Shown here: piece by piece, positions 1,358 through 17,896 of the stretch
How the letters are laid out: each line of letters starts with the position of its first letter
How positions within the stretch are numbered: the first letter of the stretch is position 1
DNA from: Plasmodiophora brassicae
Taxonomy: Eukaryota
NCBI GenBank assembly: GCA_036867785.1
Contig: CP145427.1
Span: forward strand, 62,001 to 126,000
Reading direction: 5' to 3'
Length of the DNA stretch: 64,000 nucleotides
The notes under the pieces: generated by a model
What the model was told of the DNA's origin: nothing
Database searches by the model: none
What the model saw: the letters and a program-made list of their open reading frames with translations, nothing else
Made by a program: the position numbers and the translations under genes

Positions 1358-4300
1358 TCAGGTGTTGCGCATGGAGTGGTGCAGCGAGACCGAGATGCTG
1401 GCGCGTTTGTTCGTGGACCGCGTCGACGGGACAATGGTGGGCGCCTGTTTGCTCGGCCCGACCCGGCGCCTGACGACGCGATGCCGGTGCAGGAGCTGTC
1501 GGACGGCGATGACGACGCATATGACCGGGCAGGCCAGCAGGAGGACGATGAACGCCAGCACGGTGTAGTACGTCCCGTTCTGCCTGCCCTGCACGCTCTG
1601 CTGTATGATCCCGATCGAGCAGATGCCGACGAGCGACGCGAACGAGAAGAACTTCAGCATGTTGTCTGCCCACGATGTGTGTGTCAGCGGGCGACCCAGC
1701 CGCCAGCGATGGTCCCCAACGCGATCGTACCGGCGTGATGGGCGTACGGCAGGCACTGCGTACGAACGTAGAGGATGGCCATGAGGGCCGTGCCCATGGA
1801 CAGCGGCAGCGACATGGTGTTCGCCGACGTGGGCACGAACACGAGCAGGACGAGGAGGAAGACGCGCTCGAGGCCGTAGTCGACGACGACCCAGGCCGTC
1901 ATGCCGTCGCGGTACCGCCGGCGCAGGTGCCCGAGCATGTTGTACCGGGGCAGCTGCGAGTTCAGGATGTGCTCGCCCTGCCCGATCAGGCGGTGCACCC
2001 AGACGGGGACGGCGACCACGAAGATGAACAGGAGCACGGCCGACACCGACATCAGCGAGACGTGCGTCGGCGTCATGCACTGCTCGCCGGGCAGGATCGC
2101 GATCACCATCTCGGACGTGCCGATCAGCCGGACGCACTTCATCAGGCTCAGCGACCGGTGGATCAGCGGCGTGCTGGCCACCAGCACCAGGCGCAGCGTC
2201 GCGTTCGTCAGGATCGTCCTCAGGAACGCGCTGTGCCTGCCGGCGTGTCCGCGTGTCATCAGGGCGGGTGCGGGGGGTGCGGGCACGCCTGCCCCTACCT
2301 GTCGGGGTGGACGAGGTCGTCGCCGGCGCTGAAGTCGTTGCTGGAGCGCTGCGCCCAGTCGAAGCGGAACTTCTTGGCGCGCAGCCAGGGGACGCCGGCC
2401 ACGACGATCAGGACGGCGGGCATGAACAGGTAGAAGCCGGGCATGAGCAGGATGGCGAGCTGGCGCTGCAGGTCGCCGACGATCCTGCAGGACGCGACCG
2501 GCAGCAGCAGGAGCGTGTCGTCCAGGTTGCGCGCCTGGATCAGCGTGCCCAGGAATTCGTTCTCGGGCGTGCGGACGGCGGCGCCCGACCAGAACGCGTT
2601 CAGCTGGAGCATGCGCGCGCCGATCTCGTAGTGGAACAGCATCGTCTCGAACGAGACCCGCTCGCTGTTCTGCGGGACGAACAGCGCCACCAGGGCGATG
2701 GCGATGACGGCGACGAAGGCGACGACGACGAACAGGGCGGCGATCCACCCGTGGGCGTACCGGTCGCAGTCCCAGCACTGGTTGTTCCACTGGCCCTTGC
2801 CGGCGCCGCACTGGTAGCAGGTGATGCCCATGAACCCGTCCTGGCACGCCGTCGTCTGCCCGTCGACGACGCCGGCGCCGATCTCGCAGTGCCCCGTCGG
2901 GCAGCACGAGTCCCGGTTGAACTCGCAGGGCATGACGAACAGCGACGACACGTTCGCCAGGGACGCCGGGCGGCTGTCGGGCGGCCGGATGATGCCCCAG
3001 TACCCGCGTTGCACGACGACGGTGCTCCCGCCCGGGCACGTCACGCCCGTCGGGCACGCCGTGCACGCCAGGCCGCGCCCGTCGACGTCGAAGAACCCGG
3101 GCAGGCAGACCGAGCACGTGTACTCTGCCGCCGCCTCAGCAACGTCGTCGAATGCCAACGGCAGCCCGCCTACCGGGATACACGACGCCCGCGCCGAGGG
3201 CGTTCGCGGCCAGGACGACGGCGTCGTCGGGGGCGGGCGCGATCAGCAGCTGCGACCCCACCGGGCATCGTTTCGTCTGCAGGACGTTCTGGAAGACGGA
3301 ATGCGACCTGCGTTGGGCGCGTCGTGAGCGTGACGACGACGTGGGAGGCGGTTTGTTCACGTACGCAGAGGCGCAGGTGACGGCCGTGATGGCTCTGGCG
3401 CCGGGCGCGATCGCCCTGGCGCCGTCCATCACGGTGACGCCGGTGCTGTCGAGGGCGACGACGGCGCCCAGCTGGCCGGTGCCGGTCCTGGACAGCACCC
3501 AGTGGGCGAACCGGACGACCTCGTCGGCGACGGCGCAGCTGTCGAACGCGGTCGGGAACGCCAGCACGACCGTCGACAGGATCGGGTAGGCGCAGATCAT
3601 GGCGCGGTCGACGACGGCCGTGGACCCGTCGGGCGACGCGTCCAGGTCGTCGGGCGTGACCGTGAGGCCGACAGCGTTCCTGGTGGAGCGGGCTGGGTCA
3701 GGGCCTTTGGCGTTCAATGGCGACGCGCGCGCGTGTCGCGTCACTGACCGGAACGCGGCAACTGATAGATTGGCCCGGGTGGCGCTGTCCAGGTCGGCGA
3801 AGCCGATGGCGTAGGCGGTGCCGGCGACGACGCTGGCGCCGCCGGCCGCCGCGGTCGTCGTCCCGTTCAGCGACGGCACCTGCAGGAACTGGGCGAACCC
3901 GGCGGCCAGCTCGGCGGGGACGACGACGGCGGCGATGCGCCGGGCGCTCGGCAGCGCCACGCCCGGGTTGTCGGCGACGACCCGCGCATCGTCCCAGGTC
4001 GTGGCGTTGCCCGCGAAGATGGCCCGGAGCGTCGCGAGCGACAGCGCCAGGCGCTGCGACACGCCCGGCACGTTGTACACGATGGCGATCGGCTGCCAGG
4101 CGAACGGGATCGCCTGGAACCCGGCCGGCGCCGGCGCCGGCTCGTACGCCGGCTGCAGGTCGAGGACGATGTCGACGACGCGCCCGGCGGCCCAGGCGGT
4201 GACGTTGCCGACGAGCGTCGCCATCGTGATGTTGTCGGACGGCAGCGGGACGGCGTCGGCGACGTACTGCGCCAGCAGGGCCCGCGCCACTGTCGCAGTC

Positions 4301-4383
4301 GACGGGGACGCCCCCAGGCGCACGTCAACGGCGGACGCGCCGCCGCCGACGCCCAGCAGCAGTACGACGAGCGTCGCCCACAT
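1358..4383 (-). CDS. Multi-exon receptor-like membrane protein: signal peptide + PstS-like periplasmic-binding domain + Cys-rich linker + multi-pass TM domain
   Basis: Signal peptide MWATLVVLLLGVGGGASA (ATG 4383). PstS-like motifs IAIVYNVPGV..LALSLATLRAIFAGNATTWDDARVVADNPGVALP, YAIGFADL and YPI in ORF 3136-4398. CxxC repeats CSVCLPG, CTACPTG and CYQCGAG in ORF 2295-3158. At least 7 hydrophobic helices across ORFs 2295-3158, 1684-3117 and 1358-2137, which join via short introns. Confidence 0.75.
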
Positions 4384-8716: not shown

Positions 8717-11329
8717 ATGACGGGCAGGACGTGGGTGGGCCGGGCGCTGCGCCGGGCCGCGCAGCGCCCTGGCGTGTGCCTGGCGGGCGCCGTGCTGGCC
8801 GCCCTGTCCGTCGGCGTCATCGTGTCGGTGGCGCTGCTGCCGGAGGTTGGCCCTCGCGCGCACCGGGTCGCCCGGCCGGCTCGGCACCGGGCGCCGGCGT
8901 ACTGGCCGCCAAACCAGGACGTTCGAAGGGACTTCCGGAACTTTGCGCAAGCGCTGTCGTCGATTGCACGGCCGGAACGTGCCGCAATGGTTCGAATATG
9001 GTGCGTTCGCGGTGTCATTGAGCCATCGCTTGCCGTTCCTTATCGTGTTGCCTAGCATCGTTACGTACTCGCTGGTGGGGCCGACCAAGAACGGCGGTAT
9101 CGGGACAGCGGATACGGCGATGGCGGAGCTGCTCGCCAGTGACGGGCGATTCGCTGTTACCGTCCTGTACGTCGGCGAGGCGCCTGACAGTATCGCGCCT
9201 TGGGTACAGCACTACGCGACGAAGGGCGTCCACCTTGTCCCGCTGCCCGACTCCGAGGTTACCATCTCGGCGAATCGGTACGCCACGGTGTCGTATCTCG
9301 TGTACCGGTGGCTTCGTGCCCAGGAGCACGCGTTCGATATCGTTCGGTTCCATGAGTGGCACGGGCCCGGGTATTTCTCGCTCCTCGCCAAGCGCCAGGG
9401 CGAGTCGTCGTGCTCGTCGACGACGTTCGTCGTCACGCTGCATTGCCCGTCGACGTTCTACTTAGAGGGCAGTCGTCGCCCGTTTTCCTCCATGAACGCC
9501 TTCGTTTCGGACTTCCTTGAACGTCAGTCGGTGGCTCTCACCGATATACTGGTCCGGTCGGTGTCGTGGCCGTACCGGGATGCGCGTCTAAGCGTACCCT
9601 GACAGGTGAGCCCCAGCGCGTTCATGCTGGAGTGGGTGCAACAACGACCCGAATGGCCAACCCTGCCTGGACGAACGTTCGTGCAGCCGAATGTGCTCAT
9701 GCCGTCTGTGGCGCGGTCGTCCTCAGTTGCGTCGACCGGGGCCCAACGGGTGCCTGTTCACGAACTCGTGTTTTTCGGCCGGCTTGAGGTGCTGAAGGGG
9801 TTCCATATATTCTGTGATGCTCTCGACATTCTGTTCTCGTCGAGCATGCCTCTTCCCCTGGGCGTTACCTTTCTCGGGCGCCCGAATTTCGGCACGTCTT
9901 CAGATTCCACTGTCGACGCGGTTGCCAGAATTCGAGATCGGGCCCGGCAATGGAGCATCGAGCCCATCATCCTGACAGGTGCGGAGACAGCGTCAGCAAT
10001 GCGGGTGCGCCCTAACACGTTGGCGTTTCAGAAATGTCGCAACCCGAGGCGGTTGCGTACCTTCGTCACGGGTCAGGCCGACTGGCAGTTATGCCATCGT
10101 TCGTCGAGAACAGCCCATATGCGGTGCTCGAGTGCCTGGCGATGGGCGTCCCCTTCATCGCAAGCGCCGTCGGGGGCACGCCTGAACTCGTCGACCCGCG
10201 CGATACGAAATCGGTTCTGTTCGCTCCAGTTACTGCCGAAGCACTTGCCAATGCTTTGGGGGAAGCGGTTGAGCTGGGCGCCGTCGTTGCTAGATCCGTA
10301 TGGATAACCGTTTCGTTTGTTCGGCGCTGCTAACGTGTTCAGGTGCAGGTGGTTAACCACACTGCGAATGGGGCGGAAACAGCTGAACTTCACTGGCGAA
10401 TTGCACAGCCGGACCGGCCGGTGCCGCCCGAGTTGCCCCATCCGATCGTGGCGGTCTGCATTGTGCATCGCAATCGAGGAACGCTCCTGCAGCAATCGAT
10501 TGATGGCGTCCTGCAACAACGGTACGATCCCATGAGAATGGACATCGTCATTGTCGCCGACGGGAGCGATGACCGCATGAGCCTGGACGCGCTTGATTCG
10601 CTGGAGCTTCGCCTGAGGGACTTGGTGACATCGCAACAATTGCACGGTGCACAGGTGATTCGCGATTCCATCCGTTCGACGGTACGTGTGCGGATCAACC
10701 GGTTCGCGTGCCCGAACCCTGACGCTTGCCCCCTGCAGGGCGCTGCGCGCAATACCGCTTTCCAGCATTCATCGGCGGAATTCGTTGCGTTCCTCGACGA
10801 CTGCGATGTCCCGAAAAACACATGGCTGTCGTCAATGGTCAAGGTCGCCCTGCACACCCAAGCCGACATCGTGACGTGCATGGCCGACATCTTCGAGGAC
10901 GCGTCGCGCCCTGTGAAGGTGCATCCGGTTGCCCGTATTGCATCCCGTTCAATTCCGAATGCGCAACAACAGGTCCTGAGACGGTGGGTCCCGCTTGGTC
11001 CCGCACCCGACCTCGGCATGTTCCATAACGTGTACGGTGCGTACGCTGGCCTGTTCCGGCGGAAGGCCTTGGTGAGCCTTGGTGGCTACTCGGAGGACGC
11101 CGGAGCGACGTCCGAGGACTGGGAGCTATACGCGCGCGCCGTTCTACAGGGCATGCGGCTTGAGCTCGTCCCAGAGGCCCTGATCTGGTATCGGGACCGT
11201 CCTGGATCGATGCGCCCACAGCAGGACCCAGCTGGTTCGCCCGCACTTCGCCCGTATCTCGCCGTTCTGCGTCCTGAACTCCACAACGCCATCCGGTTCT
11301 CGCACGCGAATACAATCCGCGCCATGTGA
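8717..11329 (+). CDS. Type II membrane glycosyltransferase, GT4 (GT-B) + GT2 (GT-A) fusion, multi-exon
   Basis: N-terminal TM (VCLAGAVLAALSVGVIVSVALL). GT4 motifs GPTKNGGIGTA, VFFGRLEVLKG and PSFVENSPYAVLECLAMGVPFIASAVGGTPE. GT2 motifs VIVADGSDD, GAARNTA, FLDDCD and EDWELYAR. Confidence 0.9.
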
Positions 11330-13582: not shown

Positions 13583-14845
13583 TTACGGGCTTGCTGTGGC
13601 GATACGGGCGCCTGCCCTGCAGACAGCGCTCGGCGTCGGAACGTGTAAGCGGTTAACGACAAACGCGGACGTACCGTCGTCCCGCTGGGCGCAGAGTAAC
13701 ACGGCCAAAGCGCTGCTCTGTCGGGACGGTACAGGATAGGAACCGGCACCGGGACAAGCGGCCGCCTTCGACGAGGGAGTGGTACGCGGCTTGCCATCGA
13801 GCAGGTGCGAGGCGATCGTTGGACACGCCGCGACGGAAGGCGACGCCACCGATCGGTCAGACCGGGCAGCGGAACCGGATGACGTCGCTGAGTGATCGTC
13901 CAGCTGGTCGCCTGTTAGATCAACCACATCGATGCCAGCGCGCGTCGCCGCTCTCGAGCGCTTTGCACATGATGGACGGGTGGAGACGTTCGACGACGAC
14001 GGCCGGCATTGCAGGTCCATCAGCACCTTGGCGAGGTACACCTCGAACCTGGCGGACAGCATGACCGCCTGCCGGGACAGGGCACTGTCGCTGTCGTTGA
14101 AGGCGGCGCAGTTCCTCCAGATCTGGCGAACCTCGTTGGCGAAATCGACGACGCGCGGGTACGCGCCGAGGTCCAGCTTGTTCTCGATAACGGCCAGGGC
14201 GATCGGCTCGTCGATGACCTCGTAGTAGTCCGGGCACGAGTCCGGGTCGACGTAGTACAGGAACGGTGCCAGCTCGTCGGTATAGTTGCATTTCAGTCGA
14301 AACAGGAGAAACTGCAGGCGCGTGCAGGCGTAGTCGTCGACGGGAACGTTCTCGATCGGGTCGTAGTACGTGCCTTCAGGCGCCGGGATCAGGCGGAACC
14401 CGACGTCGGGCGGCGGCTTGCGGAAGGTTTTCGAGAAGGCGCGCGTGAACCGCCCGCGTAGGTCTCTCGCGGCACCGTACACGGGCGAGCGCGACGTCGA
14501 CGGACCATTGAACAGCAACGCGTTGTTGAAACAGCGCATGACGTCACGCGCGACATCGTCCAGCGACGGATACCGGTTCGCGCGGAGGCGATCCTGTAGC
14601 AGGGTCGGCCCGTCAGGCGCAGCCATACATGTCGACGTCGCCGGCCGCACCTCAATGGTTCCCAGGTCGACCGGTCGTCGGATGACGTACGGGTAGACCG
14701 CAACGCCGAGCTTGACGGGGTCGACGGGCTCGTGGAAGTACGCGTACCCTGGCAGCGTCGTCAGGCCCTGCAGCACGCCCGCTATCGCCGACCGCCAGTC
14801 GCCCTTGTCGCACGGCGACGCCGCCGCCGCCGACTTCGACAGCAT
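13583..14845 (-). CDS. Double bromodomain protein
   Basis: BD1: YFHEPVDPVKLGVAVYPYVIRRPVDLGTI..CFNNALLFN. BD2: APFLYYVDPDSCPDYYEVIDEPIAL..IWRNCAAFN. Probable in-frame intron near 14600-14650. The 3' end is uncertain. Confidence 0.85.
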   Translation of the reverse strand: MLSKSAAAASPCDKGDWRSAIAGVLQGLTTLPGYAYFHEPVDPVKLGVAVYPYVIRRPVDLGTIEVRPATSTCMAAPDGPTLLQDRLRANRYPSLDDVARDVMRCFNNALLFNGPSTSRSPVYGAARDLRGRFTRAFSKTFRKPPPDVGFRLIPAPEGTYYDPIENVPVDDYACTRLQFLLFRLKCNYTDELAPFLYYVDPDSCPDYYEVIDEPIALAVIENKLDLGAYPRVVDFANEVRQIWRNCAAFNDSDSALSRQAVMLSARFEVYLAKVLMDLQCRPSSSNVSTRPSCAKRSRAATRAGIDVVDLTGDQLDDHSATSSGSAARSDRSVASPSVAACPTIASHLLDGKPRTTPSSKAAACPGAGSYPVPSRQSSALAVLLCAQRDDGTSAFVVNRLHVPTPSAVCRAGARIATASP

Positions 14846-15040
14846 CCGCCCCTGGCGCCTCCCACCCGGTCCCCGAAGAATCTACAAATGACTATTCTCC
14901 TTCGGGAAGGCGCCATGCCCGGTGTCCCTACACGCGCCAAAACGGGGCCCCCGCCCGCCCCCCCGCGCCACCACACCCGCAACGAAGAGGCCCAGAGTCG
15001 GCAACTGCAGCGTGCGCACTGCCGGCCGCTGCAGCTGCAG

Positions 15041-15938: not shown

Positions 15939-17598
15939 TTAGAGTTGGGTGGGTATTTCTAGCACGTGCATGTGGTGCAGGTCGCCCATTAGGATCGACA
16001 GCTCGTTCTGGCCAATGAGGAAGTCGTTCCAGAGCTTCTGGCCCGACGTCGTCGCCTTGAACCGCGGCAGGGAATCCTTGCTCATCAGCTCAACGACCTC
16101 ATGCAGCGCTGCGTCGAAAATGGTACCGTCGGCCAGGATATTGGCCGCCAGGATCATGGCATGTTCACGTTTCGCGGCGCATTTGCCGACGGACGGGCAT
16201 CGCTCGTCGATCGCCATGTCCACCGGATACTCCTCCATTCCGTCGACGAATGCAAACCGCTCGCGCAACCGATCTGATACGTCGAACGGCAAGTTCACCT
16301 GCTCAGTGCGTCTGTTACGATGGGACGTAGGCAGAGGAACAGTGCGTCGGGCCGGTACCTGGCATGGGGAGCCGTCCCGAATGAACGTCCGATAGATCCG
16401 GACGGCCTCATAGCAGACATCGAGGAATGGCAAGTGGACCGACGCCGGCCGGCTGTCGATATCTGCACTAAACGACATGCAGGACGACTTGTCGTTTGGA
16501 GCGTCGTCTTCGCGGAGACGCTGGCAGTGGCATTGAATCTCGCGAGCGCTCCTCCAGAACAGCAGGTTCTCCACTGAAAATTCCCTCCTGACGGGCAGCG
16601 CGCGCTTTGATCAACGATTAGCAATATGAGGGGGGAGCATTAATGTCTTACTGCAGGTGCTGGAGGAATGCGGTGAAGTTGCGCTGGTCGGCGAGGAACG
16701 CTTCCAAGGTGGCGGCCGGCCGCTCCGGTAGGTACGCGTGTGCCGTTGCAGAGTACAGCGGGACGCCCACGCCGATCAGGAACACGAGATGGTAGCCGAG
16801 GAGGGCCAGCGTGGTCCGCAGGCCGAATCGCCAGTCGACGACGGCGTAAGCCTCAGGCAGCGTTGTGAGGACGACGGTGCCGAGCAGAGTAACGGCGTGT
16901 ATGATAGCGATGCGGCGTAGGTTGCGTTTGATGCCGATGGCGTCTTGTGATATGCGCAGGCGGAACAACAAGGCGAGGAACAAGGTGAGCGACAGCCCCA
17001 TTTCGGTGATCTTGACGTAGGCCAGGCCTCTGCACTCCATGATCCAGCGCATGCGGTGGCAGTCGAGCGCCGTTACCGCCCCGACAGACCGTTGTCGAAT
17101 GAAAACGAGCGGTATGACGACGACCAACAGGTTCGCGATGATGAAGAGGGATGCGGCCCAGCGGGAAACGATACGACGGTCGAACGCGATGACGTCGAAC
17201 GATGGGACCAGGTCGAGCTTATCATGGCTGGACCTTGTCATCAACGACGTCAGGCGGCGATGCTGTTCGCGGACAATGTCCACCTGGCTTCTCGTCGCAG
17301 TGAATTTGGCATGGAGGACGACTAGCTGCCAAATGTACGCGTCGATGGCGATGGACGACACCAGGGCGAGCGGGGTACCCGTAATGAACACGTCCGAGTC
17401 CGGGGCCAACTCGGACGCGATACTCATCCAGCACCCGACCACCGCCGCCGACCCACCCGTCACAATCACCGCCGGGTCCCACGCCCGAATCGGGAACACA
17501 TCCCGCTTCCCCCAGTATTTCACCAGGCACACCGGCATGTACATCGTCGCGAACAGGTGCGCTACGTAATACCAGCGCGCTGCCGACGTCACCTCCAT
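15939..17598 (-). CDS. 7TM-RGS protein (membrane-anchored regulator of G-protein signalling)
   Basis: About 7 TM helices in ORF 16648-17598. Intron 16588-16651 joins FLQHLQ to REFSVENLLFWR. Further RGS motifs are IYRTFI..SPCQ/VNLP and IFDAALHEVVELMSKDSLPRF. Confidence 0.9.
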
Positions 17599-17896
17599 CG
17601 GCCCGCGCCGACGGCGTCGTTCCCGCTGGTCCTATTCGTACTGATTATCGTCCCCTGGCCATATGGGACTGGGTGCCGTGCCGACGCCCGATCCCGGGTG
17701 TGTACCGGGCACTTCGCCAGGTGTCTGTCCCCCGGTCTCAGGCTGTATACCAACCAGCAACGGCGACGCCCATTAGGGGGTTGCATTCGCTGCTTCCGCT
17801 ACGGGTAAGTCGGTCGTGTGGTTCTGCGCCGCGCATTGCGTAGTGGGGAAGAGCGTGCTACTGTTCAGGGCGCAGGTATATAGCACCTCATCAAGA

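Follow-up and report, generated by a model that had tools for sequence, protein, structure and literature searches.

A 64,000-nucleotide stretch of the Plasmodiophora brassicae genome (contig CP145427.1, positions 62,001 to 126,000; hereafter the window, numbered from its first letter) carries, on the minus strand at 4383..1358, one gene of six exons encoding a 907-residue protein. A signal peptide is followed by a binding domain related to the bacterial phosphate-binding protein PstS, a cysteine-rich stalk, a multi-pass membrane domain and a short tail. Profile comparisons indicate homology of the membrane domain to the Pfam family PF06011 ('TRP'), the family of the fungal Pkd2 and Flc proteins, and the stalk and membrane domain recur together with other ectodomains in proteins of chytrids and blastoclads.

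The coding region (1358..4383, stop included) starts with an ATG at 4383 and ends with a TGA at 1360-1358. Exons lie at 4383-3749, 3679-3365, 3307-3174, 3124-2299, 2236-1731 and 1665-1358. In splice-site tests by script, the five GT..AG introns, of 69, 57, 49, 62 and 65 nucleotides, were the sole candidate combination yielding one open frame. Introns 1 (3680..3748) and 2 (3308..3364) are both in frame and free of stops; the former lies inside the PstS-like domain, and the latter has a GTACGT donor (GTACGT..AG), which alone preserves the frame. Intron 3 (3125..3173) lies inside the Cys-rich stalk, and its retention brings in a stop at 3138-3136. Introns 4 (2237..2298) and 5 (1666..1730) lie inside the membrane domain; retention of intron 4 gives a stop in the first intron codon.

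A public P. brassicae protein (SPR01933.1; UniRef A0A3P3YP56, named "PBP domain-containing protein"; P0072 in this analysis) also has 907 residues and aligns to the model without gaps; the same exon structure was therefore reached by other annotators. The two differ at nine of 907 residues (72, 85, 87, 148, 279, 288, 290, 291 and 470), and the window therefore represents another isolate of P. brassicae. Eight of these differences fall in the ectodomain, four of them clustered at residues 279-291, one in the stalk and none in the membrane domain, a distribution that could mean that selection on the binding domain is relaxed or diversifying. Only the self match was obtained when the protein was searched against the window by tblastn, and no second copy was found there. 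One source lists SPR01933.1 as 'unnamed protein product (mitochondrion)'; the gene sits on a 746-kb contig and has spliceosomal introns, and the label is probably a slip in the record. The six-exon open frame and the public protein of the same length agree with the first-pass annotation of the window, which had read 1358-4383 as one receptor-like protein.

The gene is transcribed, and its transcripts are spliced. Contigs of four public sequencing runs were placed on the gene; no run listed for it is recorded as RNA, X1, X4 and X6, from three studies, are taken by guess to be RNA, and the DNA-like run X16 serves as a comparison for splice joints. Intron 5 is spliced out in contigs of X1, X4 and X6, intron 4 in X6, and intron 1 in X6 (side of 112) and X1 (short side, 28). 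In one contig of X6 (record 24), exons 6, 5 and 4 follow one another without the introns, and the joints of introns 1, 4 and 5 are absent from the X16 contigs. The spliced transcript assumed at first pass is thus documented in RNA-type contigs for three of five introns; introns 2 and 3, for which no joint was found, are taken up below. Immediately 3' of the stop codon, a GTC/GAC triplet run (1330-1364) draws many unrelated contigs, with depth peaks and with loose ends at 1330-1332 in all four runs; depth at 1330-1364 is therefore meaningless.

The N-terminus is hydrophobic (Kyte-Doolittle mean of 1.86 over residues 1-19), and the signal peptide comprises about residues 1-17 (MWATLVVLLLGVGGGAS; 4333..4383), with a cleavage site placed by eye. 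It is followed by a class II binding (Venus flytrap) domain of about residues 20-316, encoded by exons 1 and 2 (3365..4326), which is a true relative of PstS. The Pfam profile PBP_like_2 (PF12849) matches residues 88-275 over profile positions 83-265 of 267 (E 5.3e-9) with 36.7 bits, above the gathering threshold of 27; the same profile matches the read-through frame at E 1.2e-8. The NCBIfam profile for PstS, TIGR00975, matches at E 7.2e-17, its 61.4 bits lying below the equivalog cut-off of 205. All 17 matches at E<=0.01 among PDB sequences are phosphate-binding proteins, the best being M. tuberculosis PstS-1 (3.7e-8).

Fold prediction points the same way. A full-length AlphaFold2 (AF2) model on the 43-row family alignment described below (A1) left the PstS part under 50 in predicted local distance difference test (pLDDT) score, and this part was refolded with 28 proteobacterial PstS sequences aligned by MAFFT with the read-through frame of the gene. 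The resulting ectodomain model has a mean pLDDT of 68, with a core above 80, and matches at least 16 PstS structures at E 1e-12 to 1e-14, with TM scores of 0.59-0.65 by target length over about 320 columns; the match to PstS 8ods has E 9.8e-15 and a TM score of 0.65 by target length over 319 columns. The comparison thus bears out the PstS-type domain proposed at first pass from four motifs (IAIVYNVPGV, IFAGNATTWDD..NPGVALP, YAIGFAD and YPI), all of which are found in the translation, as are the signal peptide and the short basic Ser/Thr tail proposed with them.

Relative to bacterial PstS (TIGR00975; 1ixh, 1pc3, 8ods), the domain has the homologous class II two-lobed fold and keeps the framework ..VxNxPG...L....L..IF.G....W.D..i...NPG..LP; columns W130, N139, L144, P145, G162 and P267 are invariant against the 28 bacterial sequences. 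In contrast, the protein is eukaryotic and membrane-anchored, reaches 61 bits against the equivalog 205, and has a different binding site. The phosphate ligands of E. coli PstS are T10, F11, S38, D56, R135, S139, G140 and T141, and the E. coli sequence carries exactly these residues at those positions. The site was compared in HMMER (PstS-3, Xanthomonas PstS), phmmer (E. coli PstS) and MAFFT (28 PstS) alignments, whose registers differ by a residue or two and which agree on the ligand replacements. In all of them the PstS motif R-x-D-x-S-G-T is replaced by V-P-A-E-L-A-A, with loss of R135, D137, S139 and T141. The G-S-G-G-G loop bearing S38 is shortened, with loss of S38, and D56 aligns with Leu; of the ligands, only the equivalent of T10 is retained. 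The absence of the GSG and RSDxSGT motifs, noted at first pass, thus holds in three independent alignments. Because the canonical phosphate ligands are gone, ligand specificity must differ from that of PstS, as had been suggested. The alignments indicate a clamshell derived from PstS with a pocket that has been rebuilt and is less polar, and in which phosphate is very unlikely to be bound in the canonical manner.

The ectodomain has six N-glycosylation sequons (N-x-S/T), which fits a location outside the cell. Word-index searches with the N-terminal part against longer and similar-length proteins, and with exon 4 among longer proteins, found no homologue beyond the protein itself, which is weak evidence; a contig scan with exon 1 gave 278 pattern matches, with no relative among them.

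The Cys-rich stalk (about residues 326-481; 2766..3282) is delimited by invariant Cys columns of the family. It contains 12 family-conserved Cys residues, including four CxxC pairs (C365/368, C382/385, C464/467 and C478/481), which correspond to the CxxC repeats seen at first pass. Pfam matches the stalk of this protein with Ephrin_rec_like alone (E 0.0095). In a search of PDB sequences with the family profile, matches were obtained to Mst1, a Cys-rich mastigoneme protein (E 2.8e-13), and to the Cys-rich domain of the calcium-sensing receptor (E 5e-4). NCD3G is matched in seven of 43 family members, in each below the cut-off.

The membrane domain (residues 487-873; 1463..2750) was delimited by AF2, hydropathy and homology to a PF06011-positive relative. 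AF2 on P0072 with A1 gave a pLDDT of 70-95 over about residues 330-885, with helices predicted at 487-510, 520-536, 579-605, 636-669, 693-727, 752-770, 779-798, 804-830 and 834-873. As the second is weakly hydrophobic, the count of nine is a prediction. The conserved Cys residues 574, 671 and 690 fall in predicted outside loops, basic residues are commoner in predicted inside loops and the tail, and one relative has a C-terminal SH3 domain, consistent with a cytoplasmic C-terminus. The model therefore suggests nine helices with the N-terminus outside and the C-terminus inside. Of the earlier proposal of at least seven transmembrane helices, the multi-pass domain stands, with about nine predicted helices instead of seven. 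The predicted cytoplasmic tail (residues 874-907; 1361..1462) is basic and Ser/Thr-rich (K+R = 5, D+E = 0). Residue 528 in the second predicted helix (window about 2627-2625) is Gln in 21 of 23 full-length relatives and Glu here, and may have a functional role in the membrane domain. H695 and N807 are further conserved polar residues.

The family was collected by HMMER with exon 4 (the Cys-rich part and first helices) against 1.84 billion representative proteins. There were 71 matches at E<=1e-3, of which one is the gene itself and the rest are 23-45 % identical; 54 of the 71, together with this protein, were scanned with Pfam, and the 17 outside the scans are mostly fragmentary. When the spliced protein was used in phmmer, many relatives aligned across the whole membrane region (residues 363-853 of this protein with P0014, 363-874 with P0007).

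Assignment of the membrane domain to PF06011 comes through one relative, P0040, in which residues 1318-1590 match PF06011 with E 3.1e-13 and 49.8 bits against a cut-off of 28.5. The family profile from A1 aligns with P0040 in hhalign at 99.8 % probability (E 8.4e-29, 426 columns), a score that also counts the Cys-rich part. The alignment runs from residues 326-831 of this protein to 914-1559 of P0040, and residues 590-831 overlie the stretch that Pfam calls TRP. Collinear matches to PF06011 below threshold occur in P0034 (5e-6), P0018 (6.1e-6) and P0014 (0.0033); one further A1 member also has a match at E<=0.01. On this profile evidence, the membrane domain is homologous to PF06011 (Pkd2/Flc) by way of P0040. 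The A1 profile found nothing credible among PDB sequences in the membrane region.

Above this stalk and membrane domain, the relatives carry diverse ectodomains. Pfam finds OpuAC in 13 of 54 relatives, ANF_receptor in 10, Beta_helix in four, LRR in one and RCC1 with TIG in one, and several long relatives have Chlam_PMP repeats. OpuAC and ANF_receptor score well (4.7e-21 and about 1e-58), and the A1 profile matches OpuAC proteins among PDB sequences, including fused binding-domain/permease chains such as 7ahc. PBP_like_2 is found in this protein only (0/54 relatives), and its PstS-like part gives no significant phmmer match among the 71 HMMER matches (best E 0.023). The first-pass annotation had regarded the protein as independently assembled. 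Instead, comparison of the sequences indicates that the stalk and membrane domain are a common chassis of chytrid and blastoclad proteins with swappable OpuAC, ANF_receptor, LRR and beta-helix ectodomains.

An organism look-up of 30 family members gave 17 from Chytridiomycota and Blastocladiomycota, the P. brassicae gene itself and 12 without an organism name. The genera are Irineochytrium, Phlyctochytrium, Polychytrium, Chytriomyces, Physocladia, Obelidium, Siphonaria, Zopfochytrium, Podochytrium, Catenaria and Blastocladiella. Nearly all relatives are named "hypothetical protein"; one is a "Metabotropic GABA-B receptor subtype 3A", a name that evidently derives from its ANF_receptor domain. 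A protein atlas gave, as leads only, haptophyte, ciliate and cnidarian clusters; in one of them, 18 % of the members have PF06011. Some long relatives contain unrelated domains, for example TrmO_N in P0017 (residues 1032-1153) and DUF92 in P0036 (393-534), which probably stem from neighbouring genes merged in draft annotations.

In its order of flytrap, Cys-rich domain and helical membrane domain, the protein is like class C G-protein-coupled receptors (GPCRs; mGluR, CaSR, T1R, GABA-B and the 7tm_3 receptors of chytrids and blastoclads), and at first pass a class-C-like seven-transmembrane (7TM) receptor was proposed. This part of the proposal fails at the membrane domain. The 7tm_3 profile was unmatched in three sets of scans: in the protein itself and ten relatives with a threshold of E<=1, in 43 members of the family with E<=0.01, and in a further 12 with E<=0.001. 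Neither the protein nor any of the 54 scanned relatives thus has a match. The family profile does not match the 7TM of the calcium-sensing receptor, though full-length chains were among the sequences searched. Instead, the membrane domain has about nine predicted helices and homology to PF06011; since it is not of the 7tm_3 type and has about nine helices, coupling to G proteins is not expected.

The accompanying statement that class C receptors use a class I binding domain is out of date: Krishnan et al. (2012; PMC3251606) describe fungal 7tm_3 receptors with N-termini of the PBP_like_2 (SPPG_06488), OpuAC, LysR_substrate and SBP_bac_1 types. Conservation of the OpuAC and ANF architectures is noted by de Mendoza et al. 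(2014; PMC3971589), and of the gut-fungal class C receptors about half have type II binding domains (Seppala et al., 2016; PMC5168858). Chytrid and blastoclad class C receptors thus have the same range of swapped binding-protein ectodomains as the present family, in the same organisms. Ionotropic glutamate receptors (iGluRs) share the concept of a clamshell of the periplasmic-binding-protein type coupled to an ion pathway. Unlike in iGluRs, the binding domain here is not split by membrane segments and the membrane fold is different; Lig_chan/iGluR was not matched in Pfam scans of the protein and 43 family members.

The closest known layout is that of the PF06011 proteins (Pkd2, Flc1-3, TrpR), which have the same order of parts from signal peptide to cytoplasmic tail and a membrane domain that is homologous by profile, through P0040. 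Fission-yeast Pkd2p is described as having a signal peptide, an extracellular binding domain, a TRP-like membrane domain and a cytoplasmic tail, and Flc1-3 as its budding-yeast homologues (bioRxiv 10.1101/316380). Reconstituted Pkd2 passed calcium upon membrane stretch (PMC9727806), and Cryptococcus Flc1, which consists of TRP_N and PF06011, acts in calcium homeostasis (PMC9600462). The usual ML-like lipid-binding ectodomain (TRP_N) of Pkd2/Flc is replaced here by the PstS-like flytrap and Cys-rich stalk; no TRP_N/ML-like domain was matched in the Pfam scans of the protein and its relatives. Unlike the Pkd2/Flc proteins, this protein reaches no PF06011 score, and calcium permeation and stretch gating are known for S. 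pombe Pkd2 only.

With moderate confidence, the protein is interpreted as a ligand-sensing Pkd2/Flc-type channel or receptor whose ligand would be other than orthophosphate. It would be a type I-oriented multi-pass surface protein, with the PstS-derived flytrap carried on a disulfide-rich stalk above the domain of about nine helices and the cytoplasmic tail. A small ligand, not orthophosphate, would close the rebuilt flytrap; the rigid stalk would relay the movement to the membrane domain; and the latter would open or modulate a pathway for cations, probably Ca2+, as membrane stretch acts on Pkd2 of fission yeast, giving rise to a fast ionic signal in the cell. A constant stalk and membrane chassis with interchangeable ectodomains speaks for a sensor whose input is set by the ectodomain.

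Several observations weigh against this interpretation. In the Pfam scan the protein itself has no PF06011 match at E<=1, and its link to the family is therefore transitive. The curated cut-off is passed by one of the 55 scanned proteins, and E<=0.01 is reached in five of the 55, all five being among the 54 relatives; the hhalign score, as noted, draws partly on the stalk. The membrane model has no Foldseek match at E<=0.001 (best E 0.07), and the best VIA-align result, a zinc transporter (ZnT4) with Z 8.4, falls short of the level that the tool gives as noise among helical bundles. The listed Foldseek and VIA-align matches include no TRP or polycystin/PKD chain, and those of VIA-align no class C chain either. 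Because no solved structure resembles the membrane model, a pore is without structural support; such a lack of matches to a predicted model would not show the membrane fold to be new. The ectodomain model leans towards the PstS fold because it was built on a PstS alignment; it confirms rather than proves the fold, for which the sequence evidence is independent of the model. With the polar ligands of the flytrap gone, there may be nothing that it binds. The relatives in budding yeast go by the name of flavin carriers, and the chassis may not be a channel. Finally, some contigs retain introns 3 and 4, and no joint is listed for introns 2 and 3.

The most probable of the alternatives, though unlikely, is a Pkd2-like protein that senses mechanical force or the wall and whose PstS-like domain has degenerated to a scaffold, or to a tether to the cell wall or host surface for example, and binds no small molecule any more. 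At least five of eight phosphate ligands are lost, mostly to Ala, Val or Leu, Pkd2 is opened by stretch of the membrane and not by a ligand (PMC9727806), and the concentration of eight of nine isolate differences in the ectodomain would fit relaxed or diversifying selection. Against it stand the invariance of W130, N139, L144/P145, G162 and P267 against 28 PstS sequences and the predicted two-lobed fold with its core pLDDT above 80. The well-scoring OpuAC and ANF_receptor domains of the relatives likewise speak for the importance of ligand binding on this chassis.

A solute carrier with a tethered binding protein, in which the flytrap would pass a nutrient to an Flc-type membrane domain as in bacterial OpuA, is considered rather improbable. 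Transporters are the usual partners of binding-protein domains, the OpuAC parts of the family match fused chains such as 7ahc, the budding-yeast PF06011 proteins carry the name of flavin carriers (10.1101/316380), and the best, though weak, structural matches are transporters such as ZnT4. Those matches are inside the noise range of the tool, however, and no transporter family is matched by sequence, either in Pfam or with the profile against PDB sequences. The long rigid Cys-rich stalk is typical of receptors and unlike tethered-binding-protein importers, and the LRR, beta-helix and RCC1/TIG ectodomains of relatives do not deliver solutes.

It is also quite improbable that the gene yields mainly two shorter products, the full-length protein being minor or absent. 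Retention of intron 3 would end the protein after the PstS-like part, giving a secreted PstS-like protein, and retention of intron 4 would truncate it at residue 636, after predicted helix 3. An X4 contig (record 20; 2933-3606) reads through introns 2 and 3, an X1 contig (record 3; 2329-3307) runs unspliced across intron 3, and intron 4 is still present in X1 record 1 and X4 record 18; among the contigs of the runs, no splice joint is listed for introns 2 and 3. At intron 2, X1 contigs (records 3 and 4) end at both intron edges. Contig depths are low (about 5-19), a range in which precursor RNA or DNA carry-over is expected, and unspliced precursor RNA is therefore the simplest explanation and the probable source of the contigs of X1 and X4 that retain introns 3 and 4; regulated retention that ends the protein early may also occur. 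Against the two-product reading, X6 record 24 links exons 6, 5 and 4, and the public annotation has the identical six exons. Removal of intron 3 is needed to join the PstS frame with the Cys-rich frame. The Cys-rich domain of the family straddles the junction of exons 3 and 4: the profile alignment to P0040 begins at residue 326, and C331, in exon 3, is kept in at least 90 % of 43 relatives. The frame downstream of intron 3 has no start codon ahead of the first conserved Cys. Frame logic, the domain that spans exons 3 and 4 and the lack of a downstream start codon thus favour removal of intron 3.

The least probable reading, and a very improbable one, is that of a class-C-like GPCR that would signal to heterotrimeric G proteins through a 7TM bundle under the control of the PstS-type flytrap and Cys-rich domain: the extracellular layout, the match to the calcium-sensing receptor with the weak NCD3G matches, the chytrid 7tm_3 receptors with PBP_like_2 or OpuAC ectodomains (PMC3251606), the GABA-B name of one relative and an RGS gene 12 kb distant speak for it, but the calcium-sensing receptor match is confined to the Cys-rich domain, the relative with the GABA-B name, which comes from ANF_receptor, is likewise without 7tm_3, 7tm_3 is unmatched in the protein and 54 relatives, the helices are about nine where seven are expected, and the membrane domain aligns with the PF06011-positive P0040.

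The RGS gene lies on the minus strand. An open reading frame (ORF) at 15939-16610 matches Pfam RGS at E 4.6e-5, its 24.2 bits lying just above the cut-off of 23.9, and starts with an FSxENLxFW-like motif; directly upstream, six hydrophobic segments are found in an ORF (16648-17631) without a Pfam match. The two probably form one 7TM-RGS gene (15939-17631), as proposed at first pass. The significance then given to it is not sustained: because the membrane domain of the PstS-like protein is homologous to PF06011, the neighbouring gene is uninformative on that protein. Two glycosyltransferase-like ORFs on the plus strand, at 8721-9602 (Glyco_transf_4, E 1.5e-4) and 10334-11329 (Glycos_transf_2, E 9.5e-14), may be exons of one or two genes. 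A minus-strand ORF at 13583-14881 contains two bromodomain stretches (Pfam E 2.4e-29).

Type II binding domains, PBP_like_2 among them, are already known from class C GPCRs of chytrids, and the protein itself exists as an uncharacterised public record. In the literature searched, no description was found of OpuAC/ANF-type ectodomains on a PF06011-type chassis, nor of a PstS-type domain on one; supplementary tables of GPCR surveys might list relatives. The same searches found no paper on this family, none that mentions DUF7630, DUF7631, PF24633 or PF24634, and nothing relevant on combinations of flytrap, TRP and zoospore or on P. brassicae receptors.

The interpretation as a ligand-sensing Pkd2/Flc-type protein can be extended, tentatively, to the whole family. 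Zoospore-formers (chytrids, blastoclads and Plasmodiophora) would then possess an unrecognised class of ionotropic chemoreceptors, Pkd2/Flc-type Ca2+ channels gated directly by swappable ectodomains, of which the P. brassicae member would sense, by its rebuilt PstS pocket, a compound of the soil or host root. This extension is possible, and is offered as a conjecture.

The way in which resting spores and zoospores of the clubroot agent detect the roots of a host is still obscure, as are the chemoreceptors of chytrid zoospores, and the gene is a concrete, expressible candidate, whose pocket is clearly of changed specificity and tied to a membrane domain with a calcium-permeable channel among its relatives. 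For evolution, the ectodomain set of chytrid class C GPCRs (OpuAC, ANF_receptor, PBP_like_2) recurs on a second, unrelated membrane chassis. If the flytrap is inert, the protein would be a further member of the Pkd2-like membrane proteins, distinguished by an uncommon ectodomain. If ligand gating is true, it would be a new type of ligand-gated channel and would provide a defined input for the poorly understood PF06011 family. If the broader chemoreceptor class is real, it would add a fourth wiring of flytrap to membrane effector to the three represented by class C GPCRs, by iGluRs and by receptor guanylyl cyclases, and the compound sensed would steer spore germination or zoospore behaviour.

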